64,000 nucleotides of DNA from the NCBI GenBank assembly GCA_963723105.1, contig CAVRPK010000002.1, positions 121,098-185,097 of the forward strand, in the 5' to 3' direction. The first letter of the stretch is position 1, and each line of letters opens with the position of its first letter. Source of the stretch: an uncultured Candidatus Micrarchaeota archaeon. GTDB lineage: Archaea; Micrarchaeota; Micrarchaeia; Anstonellales; Bilamarchaeaceae. Below the pieces are notes generated by a model. The model was not told where the DNA came from and did no database searches. It worked only from the letters and a program-made list of their open reading frames with translations. Shown one piece after another: positions 28,304-43,678 of this stretch. The translations under genes were made by a program, and so were the position numbers.

Positions 28304-30724
28304 TTAAAGTCCTCTTAGTACTCTTCGCTGTTGTCTTCTTTCTGGTTGTGCTGGTGCAGTTTGAGCTGGTGCTTGCTGCTCTTCAAGAGTTATTCCCTCA
28401 ATTCCGCGTGCCCAATGTCCTGCTGGCCTTGTTCTATTTCTTTGTCTCCATGAATACACTGCAAGAGCTGTAAGTGCTTGCGCGCTTTCACGTCCATCTG
28501 CTGTTAGTGTATCTGTTGTTCCTGAAAACACTTGTCTATTTAGTATTCTCAAATCTTCTGCAAGTCTTTGATTTGTTTCTCCAGTAAGTCCTGCAACATG
28601 ATTGACAAATGCTACCATTGCTTCAATCATTAGTCTTCGATCTCCAGCAGGTGTAGTTTCGCTGAGCCTGACAGCTGGCCTTGTTACTGGTTGATACCTT
28701 GTTTGTCCTGCTGCCCAAGTGTGAAATGCTCGTCCTACAGGAGTACTTGCATCATGGAAAAGTTCATTGAAGGCTCTATCAAATGCTCTTGAGAGATCAT
28801 CTCTGTTTAGATGCCTCAGTGCTCTTTCAAAGACTGGTGTAGTAGAACTTCCATGAACAGTTGAGGCAACATCAGTAGGAAGCCTTAAGATAGATACAAT
28901 TCCTTCTGGCCTTCCTGTTTGTACTGCCCTAAACAATTCGACCTGGAGGTTTTGCCAATGCCTGTGTGCATGTTCTTCAAGCGGAGTTCGTTGTGGCTGT
29001 GCTGGCTGGGCGGTTCTTGCTACTGCTCTTTGCCAGACTGCCTGCTGAATCAATCTTCCAATTTCATTTCTTCCTCTTAAATTTGGATGAAGGTGATCTC
29101 CACGAGGGCTATCATATTCTGGTCTTAGCGTTGCCGGGGTTCCGGTTCCAAGTGATGAGGACAAGTCAACAAATATAATATCTGTTCTCTGGCGAAGCCA
29201 TGCATCAATTGCATCTGCTCTTCTTTGAGCAGCTACACTCCATCTGGGGTATGTCGCATAAGGCGGGCTTCCCCAAACAACTGGTAACACTCCTGCACTA
29301 TGCGCTCTTGCAATCATTGTCTCTAAATTACCTTGAACTGTTTCAAGTGATCTTCCGTCATTTACAATTACTGCTCCTGATATTACTACTATGTTCGGCT
29401 GTCCACGTCCTCCGATTCTATGGCCATTATATCTTCTTAGAACTCCTGACATTGCCTCTCCTGAAACACCATCAGATTCAACGCGTGCACTTGGAACATC
29501 TCTTCTAAGAAGTCTTTGCAGTTCCCTTCCAACTGCTCCTCCCGCAGTAAGTGAAGCTCCAACAATCAGTACATTTGGATTTGCAAGAGCAGCTGCGTAT
29601 CTGCTCATATCAAGACCAGTTTGAGCCTCTGCAACTCTTGTTGGTGCTGCTGGTTGCGCTTCCGGAATCTCAAGAACTTCAGGAGCTTGCCAGGTTGCAA
29701 TTCTACTTTGTGCTCTTCCGCGTCCGCGTGCTGGATGCTCCTGATACCATCTTCTCATATATAGTGATGAGCTTGTGATCGTATCTGCATCCATTGGACT
29801 GCTAAGGTATGCTCTTTGGAAAACCAATCTCACTTCCTCTCTATCTGCATCTTGCTCTGGAGTTCGAACCAAATCAACATGTGCAAGTCTTCCATGTTCT
29901 GTATCTTGATTAGTTAGAAGCTGGCTTATCTCTTGTCTAAATCTCGTGTTTCCACCATTTGGACGCGCTTCAAAATGCATCAAATAATATCTAATATAGA
30001 AATTAGCAGCTCTAATTACCGGATCACTTGCATCTGCTGCAAGAGTTCCACTACTTGCAGTAATTGCACTTTGAAGCCTTGTGAAATCCGCATTAGTTCC
30101 AGCTTGTGATGAGAGATATAATCTGAATCTTGGAATCTGCAATAATTCATTGAAAACAGAAACTGTTGTTGCTCTTTGATTAGGTGTTCCGGCGGCGCTT
30201 CCTGCTCTTTCTCCTGTAGTTAGGAACTGCTCAATATATCTGGAGTTTGTATGAAGCGCGCTTGCAGCACCTGTAGCTGCTCTGTCCGAGCCTCTGGAAT
30301 TTCTAAGCTGCGTTTCTATCCATTGTGCGGAAATTGTAGGCCTTGGAGCTTCTCGTGGCGGCGGAGTAGGTGGTCTTGCTGCCGGAGTTCTCTCCCGTGG
30401 AGGTCTGCTTCTTGGCGGCCTTGATCTTGGCGGCGGAGTAGTTCTTCTTTCTGTTCCGCCTCCTCCTGTTTCTTCTCTTGCGCCTGGATGCAATTGCCTG
30501 AAGATGCCACTTGCAATACTTCTAGCAGAACCAATCCGTTCAAATGCAGCTGCATCAGCATCAGGAGCTCCTCCTATACCTACATTAATTGCTCTTCTGA
30601 CTTTTCCAGTCAATTGTGGAATTGTGTCCTCTATACTAAAAGTAATTCCAGTAACTCTTCTCCATCCACTTGGCCCAACTACGACCAATGTATTTCCCTG
30701 AAGTTCTACTCTTGCACCTGCCAT
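28304..30724 (-). CDS. 806-aa protein with central SGNH/GDSL-hydrolase-like domain (approx 29047-29578) and N-proximal Pro/Arg-rich linker (approx 30337-30439); Lys-depleted
   Basis: The SGNH hydrolase blocks are recognisable: block I VLIVGASLTAGG (GDS(L)-type nucleophile Ser), block III VIVNDG (GxND), block V DHLHP (DxxH catalytic dyad). The linker reads PPPRSRPPRSRPPRERTPAARPPTPPPREAPRP. Its start ATG overlaps the stop of the 2360-aa gene in a TAATG arrangement. Confidence 0.6.
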   Translation of the reverse strand: MAGARVELQGNTLVVVGPSGWRRVTGITFSIEDTIPQLTGKVRRAINVGIGGAPDADAAAFERIGSARSIASGIFRQLHPGAREETGGGGTERRTTPPPRSRPPRSRPPRERTPAARPPTPPPREAPRPTISAQWIETQLRNSRGSDRAATGAASALHTNSRYIEQFLTTGERAGSAAGTPNQRATTVSVFNELLQIPRFRLYLSSQAGTNADFTRLQSAITASSGTLAADASDPVIRAANFYIRYYLMHFEARPNGGNTRFRQEISQLLTNQDTEHGRLAHVDLVRTPEQDADREEVRLVFQRAYLSSPMDADTITSSSLYMRRWYQEHPARGRGRAQSRIATWQAPEVLEIPEAQPAAPTRVAEAQTGLDMSRYAAALANPNVLIVGASLTAGGAVGRELQRLLRRDVPSARVESDGVSGEAMSGVLRRYNGHRIGGRGQPNIVVISGAVIVNDGRSLETVQGNLETMIARAHSAGVLPVVWGSPPYATYPRWSVAAQRRADAIDAWLRQRTDIIFVDLSSSLGTGTPATLRPEYDSPRGDHLHPNLRGRNEIGRLIQQAVWQRAVARTAQPAQPQRTPLEEHAHRHWQNLQVELFRAVQTGRPEGIVSILRLPTDVASTVHGSSTTPVFERALRHLNRDDLSRAFDRAFNELFHDASTPVGRAFHTWAAGQTRYQPVTRPAVRLSETTPAGDRRLMIEAMVAFVNHVAGLTGETNQRLAEDLRILNRQVFSGTTDTLTADGRESAQALTALAVYSWRQRNRTRPAGHWARGIEGITLEEQQAPAQTAPAQPERRQQRRVLRGL

Positions 30725-33700
30725 TATTGTCGCCTCGATCTATGTGCTCTTGCATATCCATGGATATGATTTCTATATGCAGTTCTAGCTCCTCTTGCGC
30801 TAAATGAAACTGTCATATCAGCTCCTTCTCCTTCAACTGTTATTCCAAGAGATCTCCTCAGTCTAGCTGATCTATCAGATGTTCCAGTTATTATTCTATA
30901 TATATCCGCCTTTATCTCTGTTCGAGCATGTGCTCTATTTGCTTGTTGCGCGCTTTCAATTCCTTCCTGGTCTTCTCCAAATGCTGCTCTCATCACAACA
31001 CCATCACCGCGCCTTCTTGTGCCTTCACCCTCAACATCATTAAACAACGCGTCGATTCTAGCATCAATAAATTCAGCTATTTGAACTCCACCGCGCTCTT
31101 CACTTTGATAAAAGCTTTGGGCCTCTGGACTAAGTCCAACTGTTGGAGCTCTTTCTACTTCTGCAGGCTCTTCGGTTTCTTCATCCTGTTGCTCTGCAGG
31201 CTGCCTTGTTTCAAAGCCTGGCCTTCTTGGATATCTTGGCCTTTCTTCTTCTTCAAGCACTTCTGCGCGCGTTCTACCTGCATCTGTTCTTCTTGGAGTT
31301 GAACTTCTAGCATCTCCTCTGCTTCTTCGTTCTGCTCCACCTGCTCGTTCTCTCATTTCAACTGGGGTTGATCCACTCCACCAGCCTCTTGATCTATAAT
31401 AACCTGATTGCCTATCGAGATACTCGTAGATTGCCTGAGGGGCCATGTCTTGAGTTTGTGCATTTGCTTGAATGTGCCTTAGAATTTCATGTAAATTTTC
31501 GATCTGATGGCCATTATCTGCCATCCACTTCATTACTCCATTTGTAGCTCGTCCTCCGCGCATTTCAGTATGAGTTGTTGCAAATGCAATTGCTTCTGCA
31601 TATTCACTGCCTCGAAGCGCTCCATCCATCTGAGCAAATATCCTAGGTGCAACTTGTCCGCTTTCTCTTGCAGTTGCAAGTGCTGTTCCAGGGTTTTCTG
31701 CAATCAAGGTTGCAAGTGCATTTAAGTCTCCGTAAATCTCTTCACCAAATTCTCCTTCAGTGAGGTTGAATCTGTTGAATGCACGAAGAGCAGCAGTGTT
31801 GCTTTCATATGTTCGAAGTAGTGACTCTAGTGTTGTTCTTACACTCGGATCCGTACAAGCTCTTCGATCAAGATTTCCTAGGAATGAATTCTGTGCAATT
31901 GCCGTTCCAAGATAGAGGTTTTCATCTGTTAAAAGTCCTCGAAGAACTTGCGCTCTTCTTGCAGGAGTAAGAGTGACAAGAGAACTAATGCTTGTTCTGT
32001 TTGCTTCAGAAGAAAGTTCACTAATTACATTATCTAAATATACTACTGGTATATGTCCCTGCTGGACTCCCATCCAGACAAATGCAAATGCGCTCGGGTT
32101 ATTGTGAAGGAATTCAATCATTCTTGCATGTTCTGCATTTGGTCTTCCTGCTTGGATTTCAGCAGGCGTAATTACTCCAGCATCAGCAAGCAGCTGAGTT
32201 GCAGCTCCTTCTGCAAATGACATCACAATTCCTCGCTCTCTCCATTGTGACATTCTAAGATCTGCCATGTCTGTAATGTCAAGATGCTCTTTGCGTTCAC
32301 TTACCAAAGTCGCATCAACCATCTCAAGACTTATTCCCCAGGGCTGAATTATTGCAAGCAATTCACGCTCTGCTTCAGTACGATCTGCACTTCCTTCAGC
32401 AGCAGTTCTTCTGGTATCAAGCAACTCATTGATATCTTCAAGTCGTCCTGTCATCTCTCTGCCATCAGTGAGGAACTCATTCATTCTTCTTGGATTCAGG
32501 TAGTGTCCGCTTCCTTCAAGAAGTGCTGTCAACTGTTCCTGGTTCCCAGGTCTTCTGTCAGTTGATTGTGGAAGGGTATTTGGCAGATGGAAATAGAACT
32601 GCCTTCCTTCTTCAGTGTCTGTTATCCAGAGTGCATTTTCTTCTGAAATGGAAATTCCAAAATCTCTTTGTGCTATTGCAATACCTTGTCTGATTTCATC
32701 TTCATTGGAAAGCATGTCATGAAGCGGACTATAAATAAATCTCCAGCCAAGATATCCTGCTCCTGCCCATGTTGCAATCTGTGGCACCATCCTCACTGAA
32801 TTTGATGGCCTGAGCATTGCATAAGGCACTGATCCTCCAGCTGCTCTTGCTGATTGGATCGCTCTGTAATACTGCATTCCCCCCCAGTGAGTCAATGGAA
32901 AATGTGCTCTTGTTCCAGTTGCCCTATGTCCAAATACCCATCTCCATGCTCCTGTTGCATACTCTCCTACTGTTCCGCGCACTGTATGCGAAGCCTCTCT
33001 TGCAAGTATTCCTGCCTGCTCTGAAATTCCAGGTATAAGCTGTTCCATTCTTGGATTTGATATTCCTATTGCATGGAAGTTTGCACGCATCTCAGCAGTT
33101 CTTACAGATCTGAGCATTCTGGCCAGTGGGGTTCCCATATCAAAGACTACTTCGATATTTCCTCCTTCACCAATTGCCTGCTCGAATATTCTTCTCTGCT
33201 GCGGTCCATAATTCTCCCGGACTGCTCTTCCAACTCTTTCACTTCGAAGGACAGTTGCGATTGCATCATCAAGATTTCCTCCCTGTAGCATTTGCTCTGA
33301 AATCCCTCTTCGAACTGCCTGCGCAACAGGATCTCCTTCTGCAGAAATTCTTCCAATCATGCTTCTTGTTGAATTTCTAAGTGTAAGTCCTTCTGCAATT
33401 ATCACATCTCCGGAAATTGCTCCTCTGCCTTCAAGTTGCAATAATAATGCAGCACGATCTCCGGCACTAAATTCTGTTCCAAGAAGTCTTTCAGTTTGTG
33501 CAAGCGGTCGCAATGCTGCTCTTTGGTCTCTTGTTTGCTGAACCAATTGCTGATTCTGTTCAAATGCTGTTTCATGGGCTGTGTTTGCTCTCTCGTGTGC
33601 TGCTTCAAGTCTAGCTAGTCTTCTTCCTGTTACTCCTCTTGTTCTTGCTGCTTCAAGGTTTACTCTTGCTGTTTCAAGAGCTTGTCCAGTCCTCTGGGCT

Positions 33701-36700
33701 ACTGCTTCAGAAGCTGCAAGGCTACTTTCAATCTCTGCAAGCCTTGCTGCTGCACCACGCTCTGTTGCTTCTACTATTAATGTCACTTCTTCAGTTGTAA
33801 ATGGTCTTGCATCAGTAAGTTCCATATATGCATCTGCAGTTCTACTGCTTCCAGCAGCCTGTCTTATTGATCCTTGTGTTCTTGCAAGTGCTCTTGCAAG
33901 TGCAGGATCACTTCTTGCTGCTGCTTCAAGATGGGGTCTGAGGTTTGGAGACGAATAAAGCTTTCTCAAAACTCCAAGATATCCTTCCCTTGTTCCTCTT
34001 CCTGCGCTTGTTGCCATTCTGTCTATTCTGACAAACAAGTCAATTGATCGCTGCACGCTGTTTCTTGCCATATTTGCAACTTCAGTTGCTTCTGCCCTTG
34101 CCTGCAGTGCTGTACGTTGTGCTGCCTGGACCTCAGCTGCAGGTGCTCCAGCTTCTGTCAGTGTCCTGAAATTTGCTTCTGCTCTTTCTGCTACTCTATT
34201 CGCTCTTCCAATTACAACATTGACTTCTTCCGGAGTCATGGTAATGTCTGAGATTATGTCACTCATTCTTGTCTGAGCATCTTCTATGATCCTGTCTGCA
34301 TTTGGAGGTTCTGCTGGATTTCTTCTTGCTGCTCTTGTTGCCCTCCAATCACGGAGCCTTCCAACTACTCTTCTATATAATAGTGTTCCTCTGCCAATCT
34401 GTCTTGGCTGCTCTCCTGGCCGAAGTATCCCTGATTCTAATGCTTGTGCATTGAGCTCTGCCTGCTGGCTATCTACTGCGCCTGGCTCTCTTACTCCAGT
34501 TGGTTCTCTTGGTGTGCCTCCAGTTCGTCTTTCACCACCACTTACTCTTCTGCTTGCTCCACCTGCCGGTGCTCCAGTTCCAGGAGGAGTTCCTGATGGG
34601 GGAGTACTTGCACTTGCTCGAATTGGTGGCATGGTTGTTTCGCCAGTTATTCTTGGCTGTCCTGGAACTTCAATAACATATTCTGTTCCAGTACCTGTTC
34701 TAATAATCTCAAATTCCATGGTTGCTTCTGCAGCATGTGCTTCAGTAATCACTTCATCCGGAACAGCTCTTCTAAGAGGTCCTGGTGCTTCAGGAGTTCC
34801 GAATTCCCTTAGTATTGCACGAGTTGAGAATGGTGTGTCTATTCCAGTATCAAGCGCATGCCTTACTGCTCTGTTTTGAAGAAGCACATCTATTCTGGCA
34901 GCTGCTTGTGGATGTTCTGCTCTTATTGCTTCAAGCCTTGCACGGGCTGCGATCATACTGCTTGTTCTTGCTTCTGCTGGAGTTGCTTCAAACCCTGCAA
35001 GCTCTCCAAGGAATGATCTGAATCGCTCTGGATTTGAAATAAATGATGCAAGATCGCGAAGTGGTCTCATTCCTCCTCCAGGTCCTCCTGGCGGAGTTGG
35101 GAATTCCAAACCTCTAATTCCGCGCACAAGTGCTGCTTCTGCAAGTTGATTTAATTCCCCTCCGCGAAGTGCTGTTCTTATTGCGCCCTGTCTCATAAGC
35201 TGAGAAATTTGGATTCTAAGTCTTGATGAAAAACCTCCGAAAATTTCAAGTGCAATCGGATTCTGTGCGCGAAGTAGTCTCATGAACCTGAACATTGTAC
35301 TTGGGTTTCCAAGTTCGCGTGCTCCTAATACTTCTGGCGGAGCTTCTCCAAATTCTGCTGCAAATTCTCTTGCATAAATTCTTGCTTGGCCTCTTGCTGA
35401 TCTTATAGCAATTGCCCTTCTAGCAGCAGATCCTCCCATTAGTGCCCATGGGAAAAGTCCAAGTCCGATCATAAGAGCTGCATTTGTAGTATCTCCTCTT
35501 TGATATGCCTGATATCCATGATAGAATGCATATCCTGAGAAGAACGTTGCAATTCCAAGATTCGCAACATTCAATCCAGTTGCAACTCTTGAGAGTCTTA
35601 TTGCATGGGTAGTTGCACCAGCTGCCCGGGCTGCAAGTGCAGCACGACCTACTCTTGCAGCAGCACCCATCATCCCAAGGCTTACTACTACAAGTCCTGC
35701 CATTGCCCAGCTTTCTGCTGATGCATGGCCATGAACTCTGTATTCAGTTACAATTTGTTCAGCTGCCATTCCAAGGAATATTGCTCCTGAAACATATGGA
35801 CCAACTACTGGAATAAATGCAGCTGCAAGTCCAGCGCCAATTAATGCCCACTGAAGTGCCTGCTGATTTCTTTGAACTGTTTGCTGCATTACTGTAAGTA
35901 TTGATTGTGCTCTCTCAAGTGCAGCTGTTGCCACTTCGCCCTGACTTTCGTAAGCATGACGAAGCTGGCTTAGCACTTCACTTTGCGCTCTTGCATAATC
36001 AGTAGTTATCTGAGCTGCTCCGCTTTGAGGAATTGCAAATATTGAAGTTTCAAGAAGAGTTGCAATTTGTCCTCTTCTATTGAGCTCATCATCGCTAAGG
36101 TTTCCAAATAGGATTTGATGGAATGCACTCAAATGCGCAGATCTATAAAATTCAAAACCCTGCATTCTTCGCTGTTCATCATAAGCAGTTCTAACTGCTT
36201 GTCTTCCACCAAGAGCTTGTGCGAGTCCTGGCGCTCTAGCAAACAAAATTTGTGTTGCCATCGGAGAGTTTTCTGCCAGGTATCCCATCAAAGCTTCTTG
36301 TCTGCTTGAGATTGCCTGCATGTAAGCTTGCTCTGCATCTTCAAAATTATTTATCAGCATTGCTCTTCTTGCTGCAATTAATTGATCTTGGCACTGGACT
36401 AATCTTGCTCCAGTTCGCGCAGCTACTTCCCCACTTGTAGTTAGCACAACTTGCCTGTATTGTTCGTTAAGAGCAAGCTGTCCATTTAGAACTGCAAATG
36501 CACGTGCAATTCTCGCTTCCCTGCTAACTTCTCCAAGGAATTCTCCAAGTTGCTGTTCTGGGAATGCTCCGTTTAATCCCTGCAATTGTTCAAAGAAAGC
36601 AAGTGCCTCACCAGCTAGATGCGGCATCACATATGTTGAAGTTGCCTGTAGCGAACTGATATAATGAATGAGGGCAGTTCTTCTTGCTTCAAGTCTTGTT

Positions 36701-37806
36701 ATTGCAGCTCGCCTTGGTGCAAGATCTCTTGCTGATGGTGCAGCTACTCCTTCTGGAACATTATCATAGAGTCCGCCAATTTCTACAAGCATTCTATTTA
36801 CTTCAAGAAGCCTGTCTCTTGCGCTCTGAAGATTTTGCTGTCTTAGTGTTCCTGCTGTAACATGCCCTAGTCTTGTATTGAATCTGTCAACTACGCGATT
36901 GAACTCTGCCATATTTCCTGTTGTAGCAGCAACTCTAAGTTGTCTTGTGAGTTGCCTTAGGGTTCTCTGTCCGCGAAGCCTTGGATCAGTTCCAGCAAAG
37001 TCTCTTTCGTATCGTCGAACATCAGCAAGAGCAACATATCCTTCATATCTTCCCCCTGTTCTTGTTCCAAGAGGCAATTGCCCTCTGGTATCTGTCTGTC
37101 CGGCAACCCAATCCTGCCTTCCCATGATTCTCTCTTCAAGCTGATGCGCTCTTGTTAGAAGAATTTCGGTATTTGCAATTCTTGCTGAGCCTGAATCAAA
37201 CCTTTCAGCTGCAGCAGTATGTTGTTCCAGTGTTTGTGCATTGACTTCCATTTCAATTGCTTCAAGCATCTCCTGTCTTCCTTGCACATAACCTGGAGTT
37301 CTCTGTCCAAAGCTGGTTGAAAATAATCCATATCTCCATCCTTCTCTTTGTCTGCTTTCTGCAGTTCCATAATAGTCTCTGGCATATTGAAGCAGAATGT
37401 GCGCTCCTTGGAAATCTCCTTGTCTTGCCCTATCTCTTGCTACTGCAAGTGCATCTTGTATCCCATCTTGCCCAATTTCTCTTCCTGCAATTGATCTTTC
37501 AATTCTTCCTGCTTCGCGTCTTACATATGCATTTTGTGCAGCTGCATAACTTTCTACAAATCTCTGTTCAATAGGCTCTCCAGCAAGTGTGAATCTTCCT
37601 CCTCTTGCATATTCAATTATCCGTTCCATTCCCTGAAGGAAGGCTGCATCGGATTCTGCTACTGATGTTATTCTTCCGCTTCTTCGAACTCCAAGTCTTT
37701 CAACTGCTTCGCTATACATTGCAATAAATGTCAAAACTCTTCTTGCTCTTGTAAGGTTTCCCTGTTCAATAAGATCATCAATATGACGCAAGCGTTTCAG
37801 TTGCAA
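30724..37806 (-). CDS. giant (2360 aa) Lys/Cys-depleted protein with internal hydrophobic four-helix core (approx 35409-35859); ORFan
   Basis: Uninterrupted 7.1-kb ORF. The start as called is TTG (the first ATG is 29 codons downstream). Residues approx 650-800 form four hydrophobic helices (LIGAGLAAAFIPVVGPYVSGAIFLGMAA ... AMAGLVVVSLGMMGAAA ... LNVANLGIATFFSGYAFY ... ALMIGLGLFPWALMGG) embedded in an otherwise highly charged Arg/Ala/Glu-rich polypeptide. A Pro/Thr/Gly-rich low-complexity tract lies near residue 1020. Confidence 0.7.
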   Translation of the reverse strand: MQLKRLRHIDDLIEQGNLTRARRVLTFIAMYSEAVERLGVRRSGRITSVAESDAAFLQGMERIIEYARGGRFTLAGEPIEQRFVESYAAAQNAYVRREAGRIERSIAGREIGQDGIQDALAVARDRARQGDFQGAHILLQYARDYYGTAESRQREGWRYGLFSTSFGQRTPGYVQGRQEMLEAIEMEVNAQTLEQHTAAAERFDSGSARIANTEILLTRAHQLEERIMGRQDWVAGQTDTRGQLPLGTRTGGRYEGYVALADVRRYERDFAGTDPRLRGQRTLRQLTRQLRVAATTGNMAEFNRVVDRFNTRLGHVTAGTLRQQNLQSARDRLLEVNRMLVEIGGLYDNVPEGVAAPSARDLAPRRAAITRLEARRTALIHYISSLQATSTYVMPHLAGEALAFFEQLQGLNGAFPEQQLGEFLGEVSREARIARAFAVLNGQLALNEQYRQVVLTTSGEVAARTGARLVQCQDQLIAARRAMLINNFEDAEQAYMQAISSRQEALMGYLAENSPMATQILFARAPGLAQALGGRQAVRTAYDEQRRMQGFEFYRSAHLSAFHQILFGNLSDDELNRRGQIATLLETSIFAIPQSGAAQITTDYARAQSEVLSQLRHAYESQGEVATAALERAQSILTVMQQTVQRNQQALQWALIGAGLAAAFIPVVGPYVSGAIFLGMAAEQIVTEYRVHGHASAESWAMAGLVVVSLGMMGAAARVGRAALAARAAGATTHAIRLSRVATGLNVANLGIATFFSGYAFYHGYQAYQRGDTTNAALMIGLGLFPWALMGGSAARRAIAIRSARGQARIYAREFAAEFGEAPPEVLGARELGNPSTMFRFMRLLRAQNPIALEIFGGFSSRLRIQISQLMRQGAIRTALRGGELNQLAEAALVRGIRGLEFPTPPGGPGGGMRPLRDLASFISNPERFRSFLGELAGFEATPAEARTSSMIAARARLEAIRAEHPQAAARIDVLLQNRAVRHALDTGIDTPFSTRAILREFGTPEAPGPLRRAVPDEVITEAHAAEATMEFEIIRTGTGTEYVIEVPGQPRITGETTMPPIRASASTPPSGTPPGTGAPAGGASRRVSGGERRTGGTPREPTGVREPGAVDSQQAELNAQALESGILRPGEQPRQIGRGTLLYRRVVGRLRDWRATRAARRNPAEPPNADRIIEDAQTRMSDIISDITMTPEEVNVVIGRANRVAERAEANFRTLTEAGAPAAEVQAAQRTALQARAEATEVANMARNSVQRSIDLFVRIDRMATSAGRGTREGYLGVLRKLYSSPNLRPHLEAAARSDPALARALARTQGSIRQAAGSSRTADAYMELTDARPFTTEEVTLIVEATERGAAARLAEIESSLAASEAVAQRTGQALETARVNLEAARTRGVTGRRLARLEAAHERANTAHETAFEQNQQLVQQTRDQRAALRPLAQTERLLGTEFSAGDRAALLLQLEGRGAISGDVIIAEGLTLRNSTRSMIGRISAEGDPVAQAVRRGISEQMLQGGNLDDAIATVLRSERVGRAVRENYGPQQRRIFEQAIGEGGNIEVVFDMGTPLARMLRSVRTAEMRANFHAIGISNPRMEQLIPGISEQAGILAREASHTVRGTVGEYATGAWRWVFGHRATGTRAHFPLTHWGGMQYYRAIQSARAAGGSVPYAMLRPSNSVRMVPQIATWAGAGYLGWRFIYSPLHDMLSNEDEIRQGIAIAQRDFGISISEENALWITDTEEGRQFYFHLPNTLPQSTDRRPGNQEQLTALLEGSGHYLNPRRMNEFLTDGREMTGRLEDINELLDTRRTAAEGSADRTEAERELLAIIQPWGISLEMVDATLVSERKEHLDITDMADLRMSQWRERGIVMSFAEGAATQLLADAGVITPAEIQAGRPNAEHARMIEFLHNNPSAFAFVWMGVQQGHIPVVYLDNVISELSSEANRTSISSLVTLTPARRAQVLRGLLTDENLYLGTAIAQNSFLGNLDRRACTDPSVRTTLESLLRTYESNTAALRAFNRFNLTEGEFGEEIYGDLNALATLIAENPGTALATARESGQVAPRIFAQMDGALRGSEYAEAIAFATTHTEMRGGRATNGVMKWMADNGHQIENLHEILRHIQANAQTQDMAPQAIYEYLDRQSGYYRSRGWWSGSTPVEMRERAGGAERRSRGDARSSTPRRTDAGRTRAEVLEEEERPRYPRRPGFETRQPAEQQDEETEEPAEVERAPTVGLSPEAQSFYQSEERGGVQIAEFIDARIDALFNDVEGEGTRRRGDGVVMRAAFGEDQEGIESAQQANRAHARTEIKADIYRIITGTSDRSARLRRSLGITVEGEGADMTVSFSARGARTAYRNHIHGYARAHRSRRQ

Positions 37807-39013
37807 CTGTTTTCTGTGAAAATCTTCCCCAGGTTCCTATTCTTGTTCTAAGTTCACTTACTGTTGAAGAATATTCATGGCGAAGTGTTCCGTCATGGAA
37901 CTGTTCACTGCTGTCGGTTCCGGTAAGCTCTGCATCAAGTGCTGCTTCCATCTGCTCTGAGCCTGCAAATGCTCTCCATCTTCTCTGCTCACCAATTGTT
38001 GTGTATGCAGTTACCATATCAAACAATCGTTCTGCTCCAGCAACATCCCCACTCAAAAGCCTAACTCTCGCAGCCTGAATTGCTGATCGAATTCTTTCTC
38101 TTTTTGCTGCTGGGCCTCTATTTCTATATCTTGTTTCAAGCGAATCCATATCTGCTCTTAGCGTTGCGATATTGAGCGTGTCCTGGAATCTGTGCGCCAT
38201 TGCTGGCGTGAATGAAATCCTTCCATCAATGATTCTGTTTATCTCTGCATAATTATCGAGATATCGTCTTCCTTGTCCATTTGCAATCTGCTCAAGAAGA
38301 CCCATCATCATTGAAAGTCTTGCAATCTGAACCTCACTAGAATCAAGTGCATCAAGTGCTCTTTGAGCATACCATGCCGGGCTATGTTCTGCCGGAGCTC
38401 TTCTTGAAGTTCCCCTAAGCGCAACTGCCCTTTCCCTCAAATCTTCTACTTGTTCCGTTTCAGTTCTTGGCTGCACTGTTCCGCTTAATATATGGTATCT
38501 CTGAATCAGTCCTCGAGCCTGCTGAAGATCAACTGTCCTATCTCTCCCAAGTCTTGCTAAAAAAGTATCCATCTCCTGCTGAAGGCTTTGGATGGCAGCT
38601 GCCCGTATTCTATCTTGTGCAACATCTGCAGAAATTAATTCAAGTTGCTGCCTGTAGTGTGTGAGTGTTGCTATTGTTTCAGTTCTAATTGCAGATTGTG
38701 CTGTCCTTAAATCCTCAGTAAATTGTCCAATAAACTGCCTATCTGCTATTGCATCTTCTTCTGAATATATCACTCCCTCTCTGGCATCTTCGCCTCTCTC
38801 AATAATAAATCTGTATCCTCTATCTCTGATAATTGATGCCTGGGATCCTTCTATCCTGCTAAGCTGAGGAAGTCTTGCAAGCAATCTCCCAACTGCTAAA
38901 ATATTAATTCCTCTTTGGTTGTTACGTGTTCCAATATCAATAAGCGCTGATTCAAGTCCGTTGCAATACTTCATCTGGAATGTCCTCACTTTCAATTCCA
39001 GAAATTTGTACAT
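37778..39013 (-). CDS. hypothetical 411-aa protein of the giant-gene cluster (Lys-depleted, Arg-rich, predicted helical)
   Basis: ATG start. It overlaps the upstream 175-aa gene by about 60 nt and the downstream giant gene by up to 29 nt. After the first 15 residues there are no further Lys. Confidence 0.5.
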   Translation of the reverse strand: MYKFLELKVRTFQMKYCNGLESALIDIGTRNNQRGINILAVGRLLARLPQLSRIEGSQASIIRDRGYRFIIERGEDAREGVIYSEEDAIADRQFIGQFTEDLRTAQSAIRTETIATLTHYRQQLELISADVAQDRIRAAAIQSLQQEMDTFLARLGRDRTVDLQQARGLIQRYHILSGTVQPRTETEQVEDLRERAVALRGTSRRAPAEHSPAWYAQRALDALDSSEVQIARLSMMMGLLEQIANGQGRRYLDNYAEINRIIDGRISFTPAMAHRFQDTLNIATLRADMDSLETRYRNRGPAAKRERIRSAIQAARVRLLSGDVAGAERLFDMVTAYTTIGEQRRWRAFAGSEQMEAALDAELTGTDSSEQFHDGTLRHEYSSTVSELRTRIGTWGRFSQKTVATETLASY

Positions 39014-39479
39014 TTGTTGGAGTTCCTGCGAGAAGCAATCTCATTCCAATATCATAAACTTCTCCGATTCTTACAATCTTATCTCTTGCCTCTGCAAGTG
39101 ACCTAACTGCATTTCCAAGTCTTCCTTCATTTGCTTCGGTTACTGATCTTTCAATTACTGCTTCTATCATTTCAAGTTCGTTTGTGTATCTTTGCCCAAG
39201 AATCGGAACAGATGTAAGATGCATTCTTGTAACTGTTCTTCGAAGCATATCTGCATCCCTTTGAACTCCTTCTGAGGTCCTTGCTCCAGGACTTACTCTT
39301 ATTTCTCCTGCGTATTCGAGCAGTTCACTGATCTGTGCTTGCACTCTTGTAAGTCCTTCTCTAAGTTCCTGTTCTTGTCCTGGACTTACTACTGTTCTGA
39401 TTGGTACAATAGAAATTGGAAGGTGACTTTCTTCTCTTGTTTCCGGTCTTCTTCTTTGACGTTCTGCCATAATCTTCAC
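38952..39479 (-). CDS. hypothetical 175-aa protein of the giant-gene cluster (Arg-rich)
   Basis: Start GTG at 39479 or ATG at 39470; abuts the stop of the 106-aa gene. Composition matches the cluster. Confidence 0.45.
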   Translation of the reverse strand: MKIMAERQRRRPETREESHLPISIVPIRTVVSPGQEQELREGLTRVQAQISELLEYAGEIRVSPGARTSEGVQRDADMLRRTVTRMHLTSVPILGQRYTNELEMIEAVIERSVTEANEGRLGNAVRSLAEARDKIVRIGEVYDIGMRLLLAGTPTNVQISGIESEDIPDEVLQRT

Positions 39480-39800
39480 CTATGAATATGTTTGACAAAT
39501 TAGAACAAAGTCACGCAGTCTATCCATGCGAGCTTTCTCATCTTCTTTTCCTTTTGCTCTTAGTGCTTCTCTCTGCCAGCTTTCAAGAGCGCCGTGGAAA
39601 TTCCTTATTTTTACAACCTGCGGAAAAATATTGTCTGGTTTTGTTGGTGCAGCATCCCATTTTGCAAGGAAACTCTCCAGGGAATTGAGTGTTCGCCCTA
39701 CACGTTTCATTGTTTCATCTTCAACAGAATTAACATCCAGTTTTTTTGGGATTTTTGTTACTTTTGATTTACGTGAAGGTTTCTTTTTAGACATAGACAC
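39480..39800 (-). CDS. hypothetical 106-aa protein with strongly basic Lys-rich N-terminus (possible nucleic-acid-binding or chaperone-like)
   Basis: MSMSKKKPSRKSKVTKIPKK... followed by a predicted helical domain. It is preceded by a TTTATAAA box about 40 nt upstream (39828-39835, minus strand). Confidence 0.45.
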   Translation of the reverse strand: MSMSKKKPSRKSKVTKIPKKLDVNSVEDETMKRVGRTLNSLESFLAKWDAAPTKPDNIFPQVVKIRNFHGALESWQREALRAKGKEDEKARMDRLRDFVLICQTYS

Positions 39801-39916: not shown

Positions 39917-42900
39917 TTATTCTGCATTTCTATTTGCACGAGCAAAAGTCATGATGTGTGATGAGAGTCCTTTTCGAGCGCGCCTTGCATCAAATGTAAC
40001 CTCAGTTATCTCTTCGCGTTCTTCTTCTCCCTCAGGTACATCTACCTTTGTTTTTACTATTTTCACTCCCCAGCCTTTTCTTAGCTGTGCGCTTCTTTTG
40101 CTGGTTCCCTCAAGCACTCTTAGAACTTCTCCTTTAACTGCAGTTTCAGCTCTAGCTCGATCTCCGCCATATAACTTTTGCAGGGATTCTTGGTCTCCAT
40201 AAAGTCTTTCAAATGTTATATCCACGAATTCTGTCCATTCTGTGAATCTCTCATCAGCATAGAACTGGCTTGCTGCCTTGGTTTGCTCTGCTTTTGTTGG
40301 GCCTGCTCTTGTCTCAGTAGATCTCATATCCTCTGCATTGAATATGTATCCTGCATTAATTGCACCCTGAGCGCTTTTTCCTCGTGGCTCTGTAAACGGA
40401 TCATAATCACTTACTGATCCTCCAGATTCCTTATGCCTTACAAGAAGCTGTACAAACTGATCTGATCTTCCAGTGTTTATCTTGTACAGTGCGCCGTTTT
40501 TGACGAACTTTTCAAGAAGTTCTCGAACATCTGGCTGAGCAACAAACGCATCTTTTGAAGGTTGCAGTTGTAAGTTGAGCTGGGATATTGCTTTTTCTGC
40601 TTGATTCAGTCTATACTCGGTTGTGCAGTCCTCATCCCATCCGCTTTCTCCTGCCTTTGTCATAACCTTGGCAAATGTGCTTCTCATGGTTTCTTCTGGA
40701 ACTTCATCTGAAAGTGGATTTGGAGTGCCTTCACCTGAAGATATTTCGCTTCTCCAAGCTGCCAGGAATTCTTCTCTATGTTCGGTCTTTACAAATCTTT
40801 CTGCTTCGCCACGATTTACAAGTGGAAGCATAAGTGTTGTTACCATTGCTTTCTGTGCAACTGCAAAGTCAACATTTTCATCTCCACTGATTCCGAATCT
40901 TTCCATAGCCTCATCCTGCTGTTCAGTGATAAGGAATCTTCGCTCGTTCCAGGTAATCATGTTCTTGGTATCTCTAAGGAATGCGCCATCTATTTTTGCG
41001 CCTCCTTCTTCACCTTCTTCTCCCTGCTGAGTTCTAAGATAATTGACAAATTCATCTGACTTTTGTTTGTTAAGCTTTAGTCCATCTGTAATTTGTTCAG
41101 TATCCATTTCAAGTAAACAACATACTGGCATTGCTTTGTTTGGCAGCCATCCCTCATCAGTAACAAGGTCTGGTGCTTCAAATGCCGCAACATCATCATC
41201 ATTTTCAAAACTGAATGGGGCAGCTTTGCAGCTTTCTGGAATATGTACCTTTTTCGTGCTGCATGTTTCAGGTGTATCAACTGGAAGTTCTCTTGGCTCA
41301 CTCTTTACTCTGATAAGTGATCTTCTCTCCTGGAAGAATCTCAGAACTTCTGGATTTTCAGCAACCCACTCGAGATTTTCTTCGCCTCGAACTCCATAAT
41401 TGTCCCTGTAAAATTGTTCTCCCCGACCAGCTAGTTTGGTGTAATCATCCTTACTGTCATTGATGAGTCTTCTATGAGTTTGTGGTGTGTCAACTGAAGT
41501 TACCCATGTCCATGGCTGATAAAGTCTGCTGTGTCCATCCAATGCAAATTTGGTATTTTGGGGAACACTTGCAGTGTAATGCTGCCATAAACTTGGAGAT
41601 GCATTATATCCATAAATTCCAGTTCCAACTATGTATCCCAATGTGATTGCATGTATAATTCCAACATGCCATCTTTTGAGGTTGAACCATCCAAACATTT
41701 TGTATGTTTTTTTATTGTCATTTCCAATTCTTGGAATAACCTGTCTTCTTTCTTTAATTAAATTCTTTACGAGTGTTCTAAGTGTTGTGATGGTATATAC
41801 TTTACCTGCTATCCATCCAACTACATCAAGAGTAAAGAATGTTCTATAGAACCCATGTGCGATTCTATCAAATAGCCCTTCAATTTCCATCGGCAGTGCT
41901 TCAACCTTTTCCCCAGTCTTTTCCCAAATAGTTTTTGCAATAACCCACTGTGTTTCACTGATCTCTCCGATCTCCATGATGGAACCATCTTCAAGTTTCT
42001 TAATTGCAAGTTTAGCTGCTTCCCGAGCTGGGTATGCATACTTGTTCTTGAATTTTATGCATTTTCCATCAACATATCCTTTTGGAAGGCTCATGTTTCT
42101 TGTTGCTTCAACTATTTTTTGAAGTTCTTTTTTTACTTCTTCAGGTAATTCTGAACCTTTAACATCTTCTGCAAGCTTGTTGATTTTTGCATTAAATTCT
42201 TCCCATTCCTTTTCGAAAGATTCTTTTGCAACCTGCTCAATTGTTTTTGCAAATCCTCCAGTTTCTTTGATTTGTGGCCCTCTTTCATTTGCAAGTGCTT
42301 GCATCAACGACTCTTTTTCTGAAAGAGCTTCTTCAACATCATCTAATAGCAATGTGATTTTTGGATATTCTGCCCATTTCATTGTTTCAGGCATTTCTTT
42401 CAAAAGTCCAGCATCATTTGCTTCAAGAAGTTTTCTTCTAAATGCTGTTTCAAATTCTGTAAGTTTTTCTCCAAAGAATTTTCTCTTATCAGAGGCTTCT
42501 TTGTATACTGTCATCATTCCTTGTAACAGGCCGGTAAGATGTGTAACATCTTGTTCTGCAGCTTCAACTTCTCGGTTAAGACCTTCCTCGAGTTGTCTCA
42601 CCTGCTCTACTTTATCCCCAACAATCTCTCCTTTATCTCTTGCCTGCTGGATCCTTTCAGATGCTTCTGATCTTTTTTGTTTTGCAGCTTGCAGTACTGC
42701 TTTAGCTTCTTCTACTTTTGGCGCTAACTGATTCACCGGTTCTGCTGCCTGTTCAACTGTTTCTTTGCTGATCTGCTCAAGTCCAAGGCCTGGAACTCCT
42801 GTTTCTGCATGAATTTCATTTGAAGGAGTTTGCATAATCTCCCGAACCACTTTTCTAAACTCATCAACTGTTCTCTCTATTGGTTCATTTGATTTTTGCT

Positions 42901-43678
42901 CTAGATAAGTATCTACGTAATTAGGGTCAATAAGTCCTCTTTGAACTCTTAATTTTGCATCTGTAGTGAGTGACTTTCTCTCAGATAGCTGTTTGAGGAC
43001 ACTACCAATGTATTCCCCCTCTTTACCTTGGCTCTCCGTTTTGGCAACATTTTCCAAAAATGCGAAAAATGCTTCTGGTGGCGACGGACAGTCTGCTCCC
43101 CATCTTCCCCAAAATTCTCCAATATTTGTTGTTTTCAATCCTATTAATGTAACATATAATATATCAAGGTCATCTGCTGATAACTCCTCGACAGTACGTT
43201 TCTCAAGCATTCCAGCAAGCCTTTTTCTTACCTTAACCATTTGTTCTTTGTATTTTGGACTTGCTTCCTCCAGCGGAGTTGGAAGCTGGTCCTGGTTTCT
43301 TACAATTGCAATGAACTGATCCTGGCACATTACAGTTCGAATCAAATCGTCTGAAGTATCAAATCCTTCTGCTCTGACGTTTCCTCTTCGAAGTGCGTTA
43401 ATGAGTATTTTGTTAAATCCATGAAGCCCTGCATTTGCAACATCTGAGCTGTCTGATCCTTTTGTTGCTCTTCCTTGTTTTTCTTCTTCATGTTCATCTC
43501 GAGCAGCAAGTCTTGCTTTCTCCTCATCTGCGGCAATTAGGGTTTTTCTAGACCTTGAAAATGGTCTTGCTGCCCAACCTTTTTTTACTGTTCCCCCTAC
43601 TGCTCCAGCGGCTCTTCTAAATTTGCCTACTGCTGGATCTCTCGTCTGTGCTTGTTTCATACCTGTGCTATCCGCCAT
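39917..43678 (-). CDS. hypothetical 1253-aa protein, first gene of the cluster; acidic, Lys-containing, with one internal hydrophobic segment and coiled-coil-like regions
   Basis: ATG start preceded by an AT-rich promoter-like spacer (43679-43885). The hydrophobic stretch is WHVGIIHAITLGYIVGTGIYGY. Long heptad-like Glu/Lys/Gln-rich segments are present. Unlike the five downstream genes it has normal Lys content. Confidence 0.6.
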   Translation of the reverse strand: MADSTGMKQAQTRDPAVGKFRRAAGAVGGTVKKGWAARPFSRSRKTLIAADEEKARLAARDEHEEEKQGRATKGSDSSDVANAGLHGFNKILINALRRGNVRAEGFDTSDDLIRTVMCQDQFIAIVRNQDQLPTPLEEASPKYKEQMVKVRKRLAGMLEKRTVEELSADDLDILYVTLIGLKTTNIGEFWGRWGADCPSPPEAFFAFLENVAKTESQGKEGEYIGSVLKQLSERKSLTTDAKLRVQRGLIDPNYVDTYLEQKSNEPIERTVDEFRKVVREIMQTPSNEIHAETGVPGLGLEQISKETVEQAAEPVNQLAPKVEEAKAVLQAAKQKRSEASERIQQARDKGEIVGDKVEQVRQLEEGLNREVEAAEQDVTHLTGLLQGMMTVYKEASDKRKFFGEKLTEFETAFRRKLLEANDAGLLKEMPETMKWAEYPKITLLLDDVEEALSEKESLMQALANERGPQIKETGGFAKTIEQVAKESFEKEWEEFNAKINKLAEDVKGSELPEEVKKELQKIVEATRNMSLPKGYVDGKCIKFKNKYAYPAREAAKLAIKKLEDGSIMEIGEISETQWVIAKTIWEKTGEKVEALPMEIEGLFDRIAHGFYRTFFTLDVVGWIAGKVYTITTLRTLVKNLIKERRQVIPRIGNDNKKTYKMFGWFNLKRWHVGIIHAITLGYIVGTGIYGYNASPSLWQHYTASVPQNTKFALDGHSRLYQPWTWVTSVDTPQTHRRLINDSKDDYTKLAGRGEQFYRDNYGVRGEENLEWVAENPEVLRFFQERRSLIRVKSEPRELPVDTPETCSTKKVHIPESCKAAPFSFENDDDVAAFEAPDLVTDEGWLPNKAMPVCCLLEMDTEQITDGLKLNKQKSDEFVNYLRTQQGEEGEEGGAKIDGAFLRDTKNMITWNERRFLITEQQDEAMERFGISGDENVDFAVAQKAMVTTLMLPLVNRGEAERFVKTEHREEFLAAWRSEISSGEGTPNPLSDEVPEETMRSTFAKVMTKAGESGWDEDCTTEYRLNQAEKAISQLNLQLQPSKDAFVAQPDVRELLEKFVKNGALYKINTGRSDQFVQLLVRHKESGGSVSDYDPFTEPRGKSAQGAINAGYIFNAEDMRSTETRAGPTKAEQTKAASQFYADERFTEWTEFVDITFERLYGDQESLQKLYGGDRARAETAVKGEVLRVLEGTSKRSAQLRKGWGVKIVKTKVDVPEGEEEREEITEVTFDARRARKGLSSHIMTFARANRNAE

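Follow-up and report, generated by a model that had tools for sequence, protein, structure and literature searches.

A conserved, predicted membrane-embedded helical block in a lysine-purged giant protein of the Micrarchaeota

We analysed a window, that is, a whole stretch of 64,000 nucleotides, from an uncultured Candidatus Micrarchaeota, a DPANN archaeon. The gene under study is among the largest of a ~1-Mb genome and lies within an operon. The relevant features are listed below; residues of the giant are numbered along its 2360-codon reading frame (ORF).

19444-28065, minus strand: second giant, a Lys-free protein of 2873 aa with an N-terminal signal-anchor (aa 25-43)
28304-30724, minus strand: Lys-free partner of 806 aa with a GDSL/SGNH hydrolase domain at aa 388-551 (Pfam PF13472, E 6.3e-10)
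30724-37806, minus strand: 3' fragment of the giant gene, 2360 codons
30727-31134, minus strand: C-terminal domain of the giant, ~130 aa, delimited by a tblastn cross-hit and alignment
31363-33507, minus strand: conserved, all-alpha C-module (ORF aa 1434-2148), delimited by pairwise coverage and alignment
35422-35868, minus strand: hydrophobic block (ORF aa 647-795)
35422-35481, minus strand: apolar stretch He (ORF aa 776-795)
35521-35580, minus strand: apolar stretch Hd (ORF aa 743-762)
35653-35712, minus strand: apolar stretch Hc (ORF aa 699-718)
35761-35802, minus strand: apolar stretch Hb (ORF aa 669-682)
35821-35859, minus strand: apolar stretch Ha (ORF aa 650-662)
37778-39013, minus strand: middle fragment of the giant gene, aligning to aa 169-560 of the family member P0002 (tblastn, three frames)
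38952-39479, minus strand: 5' fragment of the giant gene, aligning to aa 1-170 of P0002 (tblastn)
39480-39800, minus strand: upstream neighbour, a small basic Lys-rich protein of 106 aa with the motif FLAKWDA
39917-43678, minus strand: operon partner of 1253 aa with one weak hydrophobic segment (aa 672-690)

Tblastn showed that the ORFs at 38952-39479, 37778-39013 and 30724-37806 are a single gene of ~2,890 aa distributed over three frames. The 5' fragment carries the conserved N-terminal motif MAERQRRRPE..LPISIVPIR, and the 3' fragment comprises the C-terminal part of an N-module, the hydrophobic block, a low-complexity linker, the C-module and the C-terminal domain. A preliminary description had treated the product as a protein of 2360 aa. 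The ORF indeed has that length, but it is only the 3' part of the gene; since the gene continues 5' of it through the two upstream fragments, the N-terminal flank of the block is ~1,195 aa, not the ~650 residues assumed at the time. The absence of an N-terminal signal peptide, also stated there, holds for this ORF and for the intact orthologues, which begin MAERQRRRPE. The AlphaFold model of the C-module has a mean pLDDT of 83.3, and most of residues 280-715 score higher than 90. The giant and the upstream 1253-aa protein end in homologous domains (tblastn, alignment); that of the giant retains a rare lysine (IKAD, ORF K2299) that is invariant in the alignment. An antisense ORF at 34286-34879 (plus strand) was rejected as a gene, as it lies inside the conserved coding frame.

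The break into three frames results from two 1-nt insertions, at ~38963 and ~37791, identified by blastn against the intact genes of the loci L006 and L002; neither insertion falls in a homopolymer. The gene is unbroken in relatives, and the L006 orthologue is an intact ORF of 2888 aa. Two independent insertions of this kind, set against two intact relatives, could mean that the copy studied here is a decaying pseudogene whose block no longer functions in this genome, a reading that would concern this copy and not the family. Against this, all three pieces lack internal stop codons and share 83-90% identity with intact orthologues, their composition, lysine purge included (see below), is fully kept, and 1-nt indels are a common type of error in metagenome assemblies. 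We consider decay of this copy very unlikely.

The giant belongs to an orphan family of 65 clusters at 50% identity (65 relatives, all at E<=1e-10, mostly 1,700-3,600 aa long), and every genome match to the family belongs to the Micrarchaeota. In a search of the literature on lysine-free or giant proteins in DPANN archaea and Micrarchaeota, we found no description of it. The C-module and C-terminal domain are common to most members, unrelated C-termini being found only in a minority (P0006, for example). The most conserved part of the family is the hydrophobic block, with the alignment motifs F.P..GP, GAIF..MA.D...TEYR..G..S...W, G.G.GF.GYM and GMALFP.AH. Of 68 sequences, 60 contain it; among the other eight, seven are truncated fragments and one, P0057, is poorly aligned. 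Orthologues lacking the segment had been named beforehand as evidence that would speak against it: no complete one clearly does, P0057 alone being uncertain.

The hydrophobic core that had been placed at 35409-35859 (residues 650-800) is real. Kyte-Doolittle (KD) averages over 19 residues peak at aa 650-678 (1.87-1.89), 701-719 (1.72) and 777-795 (1.51), with a weaker apolar stretch at aa 743-762. Charged residues make up 8.6% of the block vs 24.6% of the remaining protein, and Gly plus Ala 37% vs 22%; the uncharged runs measure 36, 19, 29 and 23 residues. A single hydrophobic 19-mer would be within chance expectation, as KD>1.4 was reached in 961 of 1000 shuffles. Over a 150-aa window, the mean KD is 0.68 vs 0.22 +/- 0.11 in 2000 shuffles, and this window holds 12 charged residues when no shuffle held fewer than 15. 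The hydrophobic residues are thus clustered beyond chance. Conservation among relatives of only 25-35% identity is stronger evidence than the shuffles.

AlphaFold modelled the block with confidence (mean pLDDT 89.7, pTM 0.70) as five long helices, at ORF residues 624-662, 669-692, 697-728, 732-769 and 773-811, with four or five apolar stretches. The four Gly/Ala-rich hydrophobic helices originally proposed are therefore recovered in character, but in the model they number five, a conserved P-x-x-G-P/W turn dividing the first apolar stretch into Ha and Hb. Across 47 sequences, the apolar stretches are 1-6% charged vs 28-31% in the flanks, and the net charge alternates between the loops: -1.36 in loop A, +1.70 in hairpin B, -0.49 in loop C and +2.74 after the block. 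Even at the variable half of the positions in the stretches, apolar or small residues account for 80-95% and charged ones for 2-6%, compared with 43% charged residues at the variable half of an adjacent amphipathic flanking helix used as a control. As the helices are apolar on every face, they are not expected to form a buried soluble core, and the helix faces did not point to the soluble core that the preliminary description had named as a refutation. Three features expected of an integral-membrane helical bundle were found together: conserved uncharged stretches of about 20 residues, apolar residues on all faces and alternating loop charge. Conserved, helical and in an apolar environment, the block is most probably a membrane-embedded bundle rather than a buried soluble core, as judged from the alignment and the structural model. 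The helices are nevertheless only marginally hydrophobic: on the Hessa scale they sum to +2.4 to +4.4, when most helices in four membrane proteins encoded by this genome, MMPL and MscL among them, range from -3.3 to +2.

The operon around the giant gene is conserved as well. It is located beside ftsY, and its synteny is kept across genomes of 39-66% GC; the flanking genes encode ribosomal proteins, FtsY, prefoldin, eIF6, Trm56, MscL and PGM. The partners of the giant are a single-pass protein of ~1,300 aa, a basic protein of ~105 aa and a protein of 500-830 aa that is an SGNH hydrolase in some lineages. Here, the latter is the 806-aa protein, which has neither a signal peptide nor a TM segment; the start of its gene overlaps the giant-gene stop codon, and synteny identifies it as a conserved downstream partner. 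The small basic protein is encoded directly upstream of the family member in every locus examined; its 106-aa representative gave no match in a Pfam search and is a candidate chaperone or adaptor. The second giant, which joins the operon in this genome, is a surface protein in which we found no known domains. Pfam and NCBIfam searches recognised no ATPase or channel component in the operon. The locus is a vertically inherited chromosomal operon, not a toxin island. A horizontally acquired island was rejected, as GC3 equals that of the neighbours (0.24) and the higher GC content stems from amino-acid composition.

In the giant and its operon neighbours, nearly all Lys residues are replaced by Arg: the five cluster ORFs at 19444-39479 contain 23 Lys in 6,630 codons, vs 609 in 6,462 codons of neighbouring genes. 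The flanks of the block had been characterised as strongly hydrophilic and Arg-rich; hydrophilic they are, but because K+R amounts to 11.3% in the giant vs 14.1% in housekeeping genes, the Arg richness is really a Lys-to-Arg swap. This purge arose repeatedly in evolution. It is not a property of a generally lysine-poor exoproteome, since a CARDB-type surface protein of the same genome (7578-9071) has a normal Lys content. In the single-pass proteins of the operon, the purge follows membrane sidedness and stops at the membrane segment. Indeed, in purged lineages the counterparts of the 1253-aa protein have normal Lys on the N-side and are Lys-depleted on the C-side: the 1309-aa protein of locus L001 has 52 Lys ahead of its single hydrophobic segment and 3 beyond it, and in the L008 counterpart Lys drops from 7.5% before the segment to 1.1% after it. 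Likewise, the 2873-aa and 377-aa proteins of the window have Lys almost only in the N-terminal tip preceding the signal-anchor (five of about nine Lys of the former are N-terminal to it). In the giant, the purge is equal on both flanks of the block. This pattern suggests that the giant is exported and inserted in a membrane at the host interface. As the 806-aa Lys-free partner also lacks an export signal, the equation of Lys-free with outside is drawn by inference from a few single-pass proteins. N-glycosylation sequons were not enriched (observed/expected 0.6-1.0).

The preliminary description had likened the core to pore-forming or membrane-insertion regions of very large delivered toxins and of self-translocating effectors, rather than to a typical polytopic transporter. 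TcdA and TcdB have internal, moderately hydrophobic segments that are thought to insert in the target membrane. The giant is like them in exceeding 2,300 aa, in lacking a signal peptide and in having a moderately hydrophobic internal stretch between hydrophilic flanks. The likeness thus stands for the architecture, conserved helices in a giant hydrophilic protein without signal peptide, but does not extend to kinship. Pfam recognised no family on the whole ORF (E<=0.01), on four pieces of it (E<=1 for the block piece) or on two divergent relatives; NCBIfam gave no match in any part of the gene, the two upstream fragments included; and none of the PHROGs families matched. At E<=1, the pieces gave no Pfam hit to TcdA_TcdB_pore, C80 peptidase, glucosyltransferase, VRP1/TcA, RHS or RtxA repeats. 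CROP repeats, glucosyltransferase and C80 cysteine protease were not found in any part of the gene with Pfam and NCBIfam, nor were the glycine-rich RtxA-type repeats and CPD of MARTX. The Tc toxin domains (VRP1, neuraminidase-like, pore-forming) and an RHS cocoon partner were without Pfam match in the giant and its neighbours. The structure search proposed earlier as a check did not reveal toxin likeness either: with the block as query, Foldseek retrieved no toxin among its PDB matches (best E 0.099, TM<=0.33), and the best E was 0.76 for the C-module against PDB. Distant homology of the block to the delivery or pore region of a large clostridial toxin, Tc toxin or MARTX, for which only the gross layout of a very large protein with an internal apolar region and no signal peptide speaks, is therefore extremely improbable; the giant differs from TcdA and TcdB in sequence, profile and fold, its block forms a compact bundle made up of helices alone, with loops of alternating charge, and it is encoded by an archaeal symbiont in a conserved, chromosomal core operon. 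A polymorphic toxin of the LXG or CdiA type was likewise rejected, because the C-module is conserved and a conserved small immunity-like gene downstream is missing; an LXG match in a neighbour scored 17.7 bits, under the cutoff of 26.5.

PDB sequence (phmmer) and profile searches returned nothing relevant apart from one marginal match to the c-subunit of ATP synthase, which covers 58 residues at E 0.006 with compositional bias and aligns G.A..IGPGVG of the block with G.a.a.iPvvGp of the profile. A subunit c hairpin resembles the block in having a Gly/Ala-rich apolar helix, a polar loop and an apolar helix, but the context in the giant is entirely different. We rejected membership in this family, the giant being a protein of ~2,900 aa with three further helices and subunit c a two-helix proteolipid of ~80 aa whose second helix bears the ion-binding carboxylate; convergence of small-residue packing motifs is the most likely explanation.

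Phage tape measures offer another comparison, as they are very long, all-alpha and Ala/Arg/Glu-rich proteins that contain apolar helices rich in Gly and Ala and are encoded just downstream of a small gene. The giant is alike in each of these respects. Its apolar helices might then lie outside a bilayer, forming the core of a homo-oligomeric rod or tube as tape measures do in the tail tube, with membrane exposure only on triggering, if at all. An oligomer interface could equally explain the apolar helix faces, and the small gene upstream together with the esterase-domain gene downstream loosely recalls chaperone-tape measure-tail tip modules. However, no tape-measure profile of Pfam or PHROGs matched, the few tape-measure entries among the BFVD matches of the block were non-significant (E>=2; best overall 0.61, none at E<=0.001), and a scan of IMG/VR and tblastn of 50,697 phage records (INPHARED) found no relatives. 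Capsid, portal, tube and terminase genes are absent from the locus, which has housekeeping genes on its flanks, is inherited vertically next to ftsY and is syntenic across the phylum, and alternating loop charge is typical of bilayer topology. The rod or tube is accordingly given a small probability.

Other systems share single traits with the giant. T3SS translocators (IpaB/YopB) and T6SS prePAAR effectors (with Eag chaperones) are secreted substrates with TM helices that need small chaperones; the giant has marginally hydrophobic helices, no signal peptide and a small conserved adjoining gene, but these systems are bacterial, none is encoded here, homology is lacking and the giant is five to ten times larger. 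Mitofusin and atlastin resemble it in layout only, with long helical regions around a short apolar hairpin or bundle and flanks that may both lie on one side of the membrane, and unlike them the giant has no GTPase or other recognised domain. The SPEARE proteins of Nanohaloarchaeota are also encoded by giant genes of a genome-reduced episymbiotic archaeon and suspected of a role at the host interface, but are defined by protease, adhesion and restriction-endonuclease domains (PMC6642349). The giant family has no recognisable domain and has a central membrane block.

We tentatively favour, at a probability of about 0.4, that the block is the membrane domain of a Micrarchaeota-specific giant that is exported without a signal peptide and inserted at the symbiont-host interface. 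In this mechanism, the block would consist of four to five Gly/Ala-rich helices packed tightly together within an all-alpha giant. The protein would leave the symbiont cytoplasm by a signal peptide-independent route, possibly chaperoned by the small upstream protein, and the marginally hydrophobic block would then insert in a membrane at the interface, leaving both huge flanks on the same, non-cytoplasmic side. The giant may thus act as a tether, a channel or a bridge component rather than a toxin. We know of no archaeal export route for a protein of 2,900 aa without signal peptide, which, together with the absence of a recognised ATPase or channel in the operon, counts against export. The unenriched sequons, the normal Lys content of the surface protein at 7578-9071, the alternating loop charge, which suits a cytoplasmic position of both flanks, and the two frameshifts in the gene of this genome count against it as well.

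A resident anchor is nearly as likely as export. Here, a four-pass block with both termini inside would be inserted in the symbiont membrane by SRP/Sec/YidC, the flanks would form a cytoplasmic, membrane-attached scaffold, and the cause of the purge would be unrelated to location. The ~1,195-aa N-terminal region without signal peptide is consistent with such an anchor, as are the sequon counts and the equal Lys content of both flanks, which would place them in a single compartment. The positive charges of hairpin B (+1.7) and of the post-block region (+2.7) and the negative loops A and C also conform to the positive-inside rule for an N-in/C-in protein. The IGPGVG-like turn aligns, if weakly, with the continuous helix 1 of subunit c, so Ha and Hb could be one long helix. 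On the other hand, AlphaFold predicts with high confidence that this first stretch is a hairpin, in which case the block would cross the membrane an odd number of times, and the helices fall far short of the hydrophobicity that most helices in the constitutive membrane proteins of the genome have. Moreover, in the single-pass neighbours the purged side is the non-cytoplasmic one, and one of these neighbours has a purged, trans-side C-terminus with which the C-terminal domain of the giant shares homology. Should the anchor reading hold, the outcome would be more modest: a new family of orphan membrane scaffolds whose composition follows a rule that is unexplained.

The export reading could be carried further, to a proposal that we regard as unlikely: the purge would mark those parts of the operon proteins that are released from the symbiont to contact or enter the host, the giant, exported without signal peptide, would contribute to a bridge or translocon by inserting its bundle into the membrane of the host, and the absence of Lys would allow it to escape a lysine-directed host process. 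Ubiquitin-like (SAMP) tagging, a Lys-specific protease and cross-linking are examples of such processes. If true, this would be the first sequence signature of delivered proteins in DPANN archaea.

To our knowledge, no molecular components of host attachment, bridging or uptake have been described for the Micrarchaeota. A family that is phylum-wide, syntenic and among the largest genes, with a conserved membrane domain, is a concrete candidate for this interface machinery, and proteins with a particular extracytoplasmic fate in common could be recognised computationally by the purge. Existing co-cultures of Micrarchaeum and Mancarchaeum make the question of the interface testable.

The segment flagged in the preliminary description corresponds to residues 650-800 of a 2360-residue open reading frame (ORF). 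Hydropathy maxima at residues 650-678, 701-719 and 777-795, a weaker apolar stretch at 743-762, few charged residues (8.6%, vs 24.6% elsewhere in the ORF) and abundant Gly and Ala (37% vs 22%) bore out the reported hydrophobic, Gly/Ala-rich block, as did shuffled sequences. A single hydrophobic 19-mer is the chance expectation for a protein of such length; the clustering of such stretches would not be expected by chance. Mean hydropathy over the 150-residue block window was 0.68, vs 0.22 +/- 0.11 in shuffles, and its 12 charged residues were fewer than in any of 2000 shuffles.

The ORF proved to be a gene fragment. Intact orthologues (2,825-2,924 aa) match three successive ORFs of the window, each in a different frame, and comparison with two intact relatives (loci L006 and L002 of other genomes) revealed exactly two 1-base insertions, near 37791 and 38963, neither in a homopolymer. 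The real protein, hereafter the giant, is therefore ~2,890 residues long and its block starts ~1,195 residues from the N-terminus, not after the ~650 residues originally described. In the present assembly the gene is either freshly disrupted, by recent pseudogenisation, or mis-assembled. The lack of a signal peptide noted for the shorter ORF also holds at the true N-terminus. Many full-length family members open with a run of 10-20 charged residues and then a brief motif, for example P-I-x-I-V-P-x-R, which could be a targeting or docking signal.

Features of the window and equivalents at other loci (all window features on the minus strand)
11968-13572: 534-aa ORF with a ThyX (Thy1) domain
19444-28065: second giant ORF, 2873 aa
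30724-37806: 2360-aa ORF, 3' fragment of the giant gene
30727-31134: C-terminal domain of the giant
39390-39470: example of the N-terminal motif
39480-39800: 106-aa small protein (L001:18639-18965; L004:9675-9992; L005:9591-9893)
39917-40315: C-terminal domain of the 1253-aa partner, homologous to that of the giant
39917-43678: 1253-aa partner (L001:5820-9749; L008:3506-7897)
61402-62535: 377-aa protein outside the cluster

Only six relatives of the giant emerged when 5.8 billion proteins were searched through a word index; exhaustive profile searching across 1.84 billion representatives gave 65, all with E<=1e-10 and mostly of 1,700-3,600 aa. The few homologues bearing names belong to Candidatus Micrarchaeota or Micrarchaeia. 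The block was detected in 60 of 68 family sequences and is the best-conserved region of the family (motifs F.P..GP, GAIF..MA.D...TEYR..G..S...W, G.G.GF.GYM and GMALFP.AH). Seven of the other eight are truncated before it and one aligns poorly; no complete orthologue clearly lacks the segment, an absence that would have spoken against the toxin-translocation reading of the preliminary description. Most members share a C-module (ORF residues ~1434-2148) and a ~130-aa C-terminal domain, and a minority carry unrelated C-termini. The family is also cysteine-poor (0.1-0.2%, vs 0.8% in the window's housekeeping proteins), in lysine-free and lysine-normal lineages alike.

Across 47 relatives, the apolar stretches of the block (Ha to He) are 1-6% charged, compared with 28-31% in the flanks. 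Even the most variable half of block positions is 80-95% apolar or small and 2-6% charged; the variable half of an adjacent amphipathic helix, used as control, is 43% charged. Since a five-helix monomer cannot bury all helix faces, the helices must be surrounded either by lipid or by an extensive oligomeric interface. The loops alternate in net charge (-1.4, +1.7, -0.5, +2.7), a pattern that fits a bilayer topology and, together with the apolar variable positions, argues against a buried soluble core. On the summed Hessa scale, the block helices score +2.4 to +4.4, clearly short of the hydrophobicity of most helices in the constitutive membrane proteins of the same genome (-3.3 to +2). If Ha and Hb form a single long helix, with which a weak c-subunit alignment (E 0.006) is compatible, the block would be a four-pass N-in/C-in anchor obeying the positive-inside rule; if they form the hairpin predicted by AlphaFold, the number of crossings would be odd, or the hairpin re-entrant.

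The operon of the giant keeps its synteny in Micrarchaeota genomes ranging from 39 to 66% GC and invariably lies beside the S19e...prefoldin-ftsY cluster.

Operon organization
Position 1: 1,250-1,460-aa protein with one weak hydrophobic segment
Position 2: ~105-aa basic protein, motif FLAKWDA
Position 3: the giant; two tandem paralogues in L001
Position 4: 500-830-aa protein, with a GDSL/SGNH domain in some lineages

Apart from the GDSL domain, the partners have no recognisable family. At every locus examined, a family member is immediately preceded by the ~105-aa protein, which is lysine-rich and likewise of no known family (extended motif FLAKWDA...RLRDFVLIC). A homologous C-terminal domain is common to the giant and the first operon protein. 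In the giant and the 1253-aa partner it spans the final ~130 residues, shows 30-41% identity among four sequences, includes an invariant lysine (IKAD/IKAE), and in the partner weakly matches phrog_21416 (function unknown; E 6e-4). Flanking genes of the window are archaeal (FtsY, prefoldin, eIF6, L31e, S19e, fibrillarin, aTrm56, geranylgeranyl reductase). The locus is core and vertically inherited, neither a toxin island nor a prophage, and the family is absent from viral collections. Elsewhere in the window, the ThyX domain occupies only residues 306-497 of its ORF, leaving a ~300-aa N-terminal extension. The second giant ORF has an N-terminal signal-anchor and further apolar stretches at residues 1438-1456 and 1723-1748; it matches no Pfam, NCBIfam or PHROG family, and the profile search for the family did not retrieve it. 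The corresponding position in L001 holds a true paralogue of the block-bearing giant.

The follow-up also uncovered a feature outside the original observation, a purge of lysine. Of the 6,630 codons in five consecutive ORFs (19444-39479, minus strand), 23 encode lysine, vs 609 of 6,462 in neighbouring genes (K 0.1-1.2% and R 10-13%, compared with K ~8-10% in the rest of the window). The five ORFs represent three genes, since three of them are pieces of the gene for the giant. Lysine is replaced by arginine, mostly AGA, without a rise in total K+R. Because GC3 matches that of the neighbours, the purge reflects selection acting at the protein level, not a foreign origin of the DNA. Relatives at 33% identity retain it, as do genomes of 62-66% GC, and it recurs in L001, L006, L008 and L010. 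Lysine content in the family is bimodal (K<=0.8% or 3.6-9.3%), and the two states are interleaved on a quick neighbour-joining tree (726 columns, K and R merged, paralogues included), indicating several independent switches. The few retained lysines, among them that of the C-terminal domain, sit in conserved columns.

In single-pass neighbours of the giant, the purge ends at the membrane segment. In the ~1,300-aa partners of L001 and L008 it starts exactly at the single hydrophobic segment (52 lysines before vs 3 after, and 7.5% vs 1.1%, respectively). L010 and the window show a weaker contrast (9.8% vs 5.5% in the L006 copy, which is near-identical to that of the window), and the lysine-normal lineage L005 shows none. 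The 2873-aa and 377-aa proteins carry lysine almost only in the cytoplasmic tip before the signal-anchor. The latter, which lies outside the cluster and has no Pfam family, carries six lysines, none beyond residue 48: five are in the tip and the sixth immediately follows a signal-anchor with a lipobox-like LGAC. Its other 329 residues are lysine-free and make it the second case of a lysine-free ectodomain. Since lysine content is normal in a CARDB-type surface protein encoded by the same genome, the purge is not general to secreted proteins; its link to location is drawn from a handful of proteins. In the giant, lysine is depleted to the same degree on either side of the block.

In layout, the giant resembles large delivered proteins that carry an internal insertion region (large clostridial toxins, tape measures, and secreted translocators assisted by chaperones), and to this extent the toxin-translocation likeness first proposed survives. 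Kinship does not: the giant failed every membership test for the delivered-protein families compared, structural comparison covering PDB and BFVD only (Foldseek). True kinship with clostridial, Tc or MARTX toxins is very improbable, and a tape-measure-like oligomeric core is unlikely.

We favour, at a probability of about 0.4, a model in which the giant would be exported without a signal peptide, possibly with the small upstream protein as chaperone; its marginally hydrophobic bundle would then insert into a membrane at the symbiont-host interface, both flanks ending up on the non-cytoplasmic side. What the data show directly is that the block exists, is conserved, helical and in apolar surroundings, that the operon is real, and that the purge follows membrane sidedness in the neighbouring proteins; export, the choice of membrane and the function are inferred. 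The main alternative, only slightly less probable, is that the block is a conventional four-pass anchor in the symbiont's own membrane, its two flanks both cytoplasmic. This agrees with the loop charges and requires no unknown export route, but leaves the lysine purge unexplained. We found no published description of the family in the literature searched, and the giant is best filed as a new orphan family in a loose class of giant interface proteins of episymbiotic archaea.
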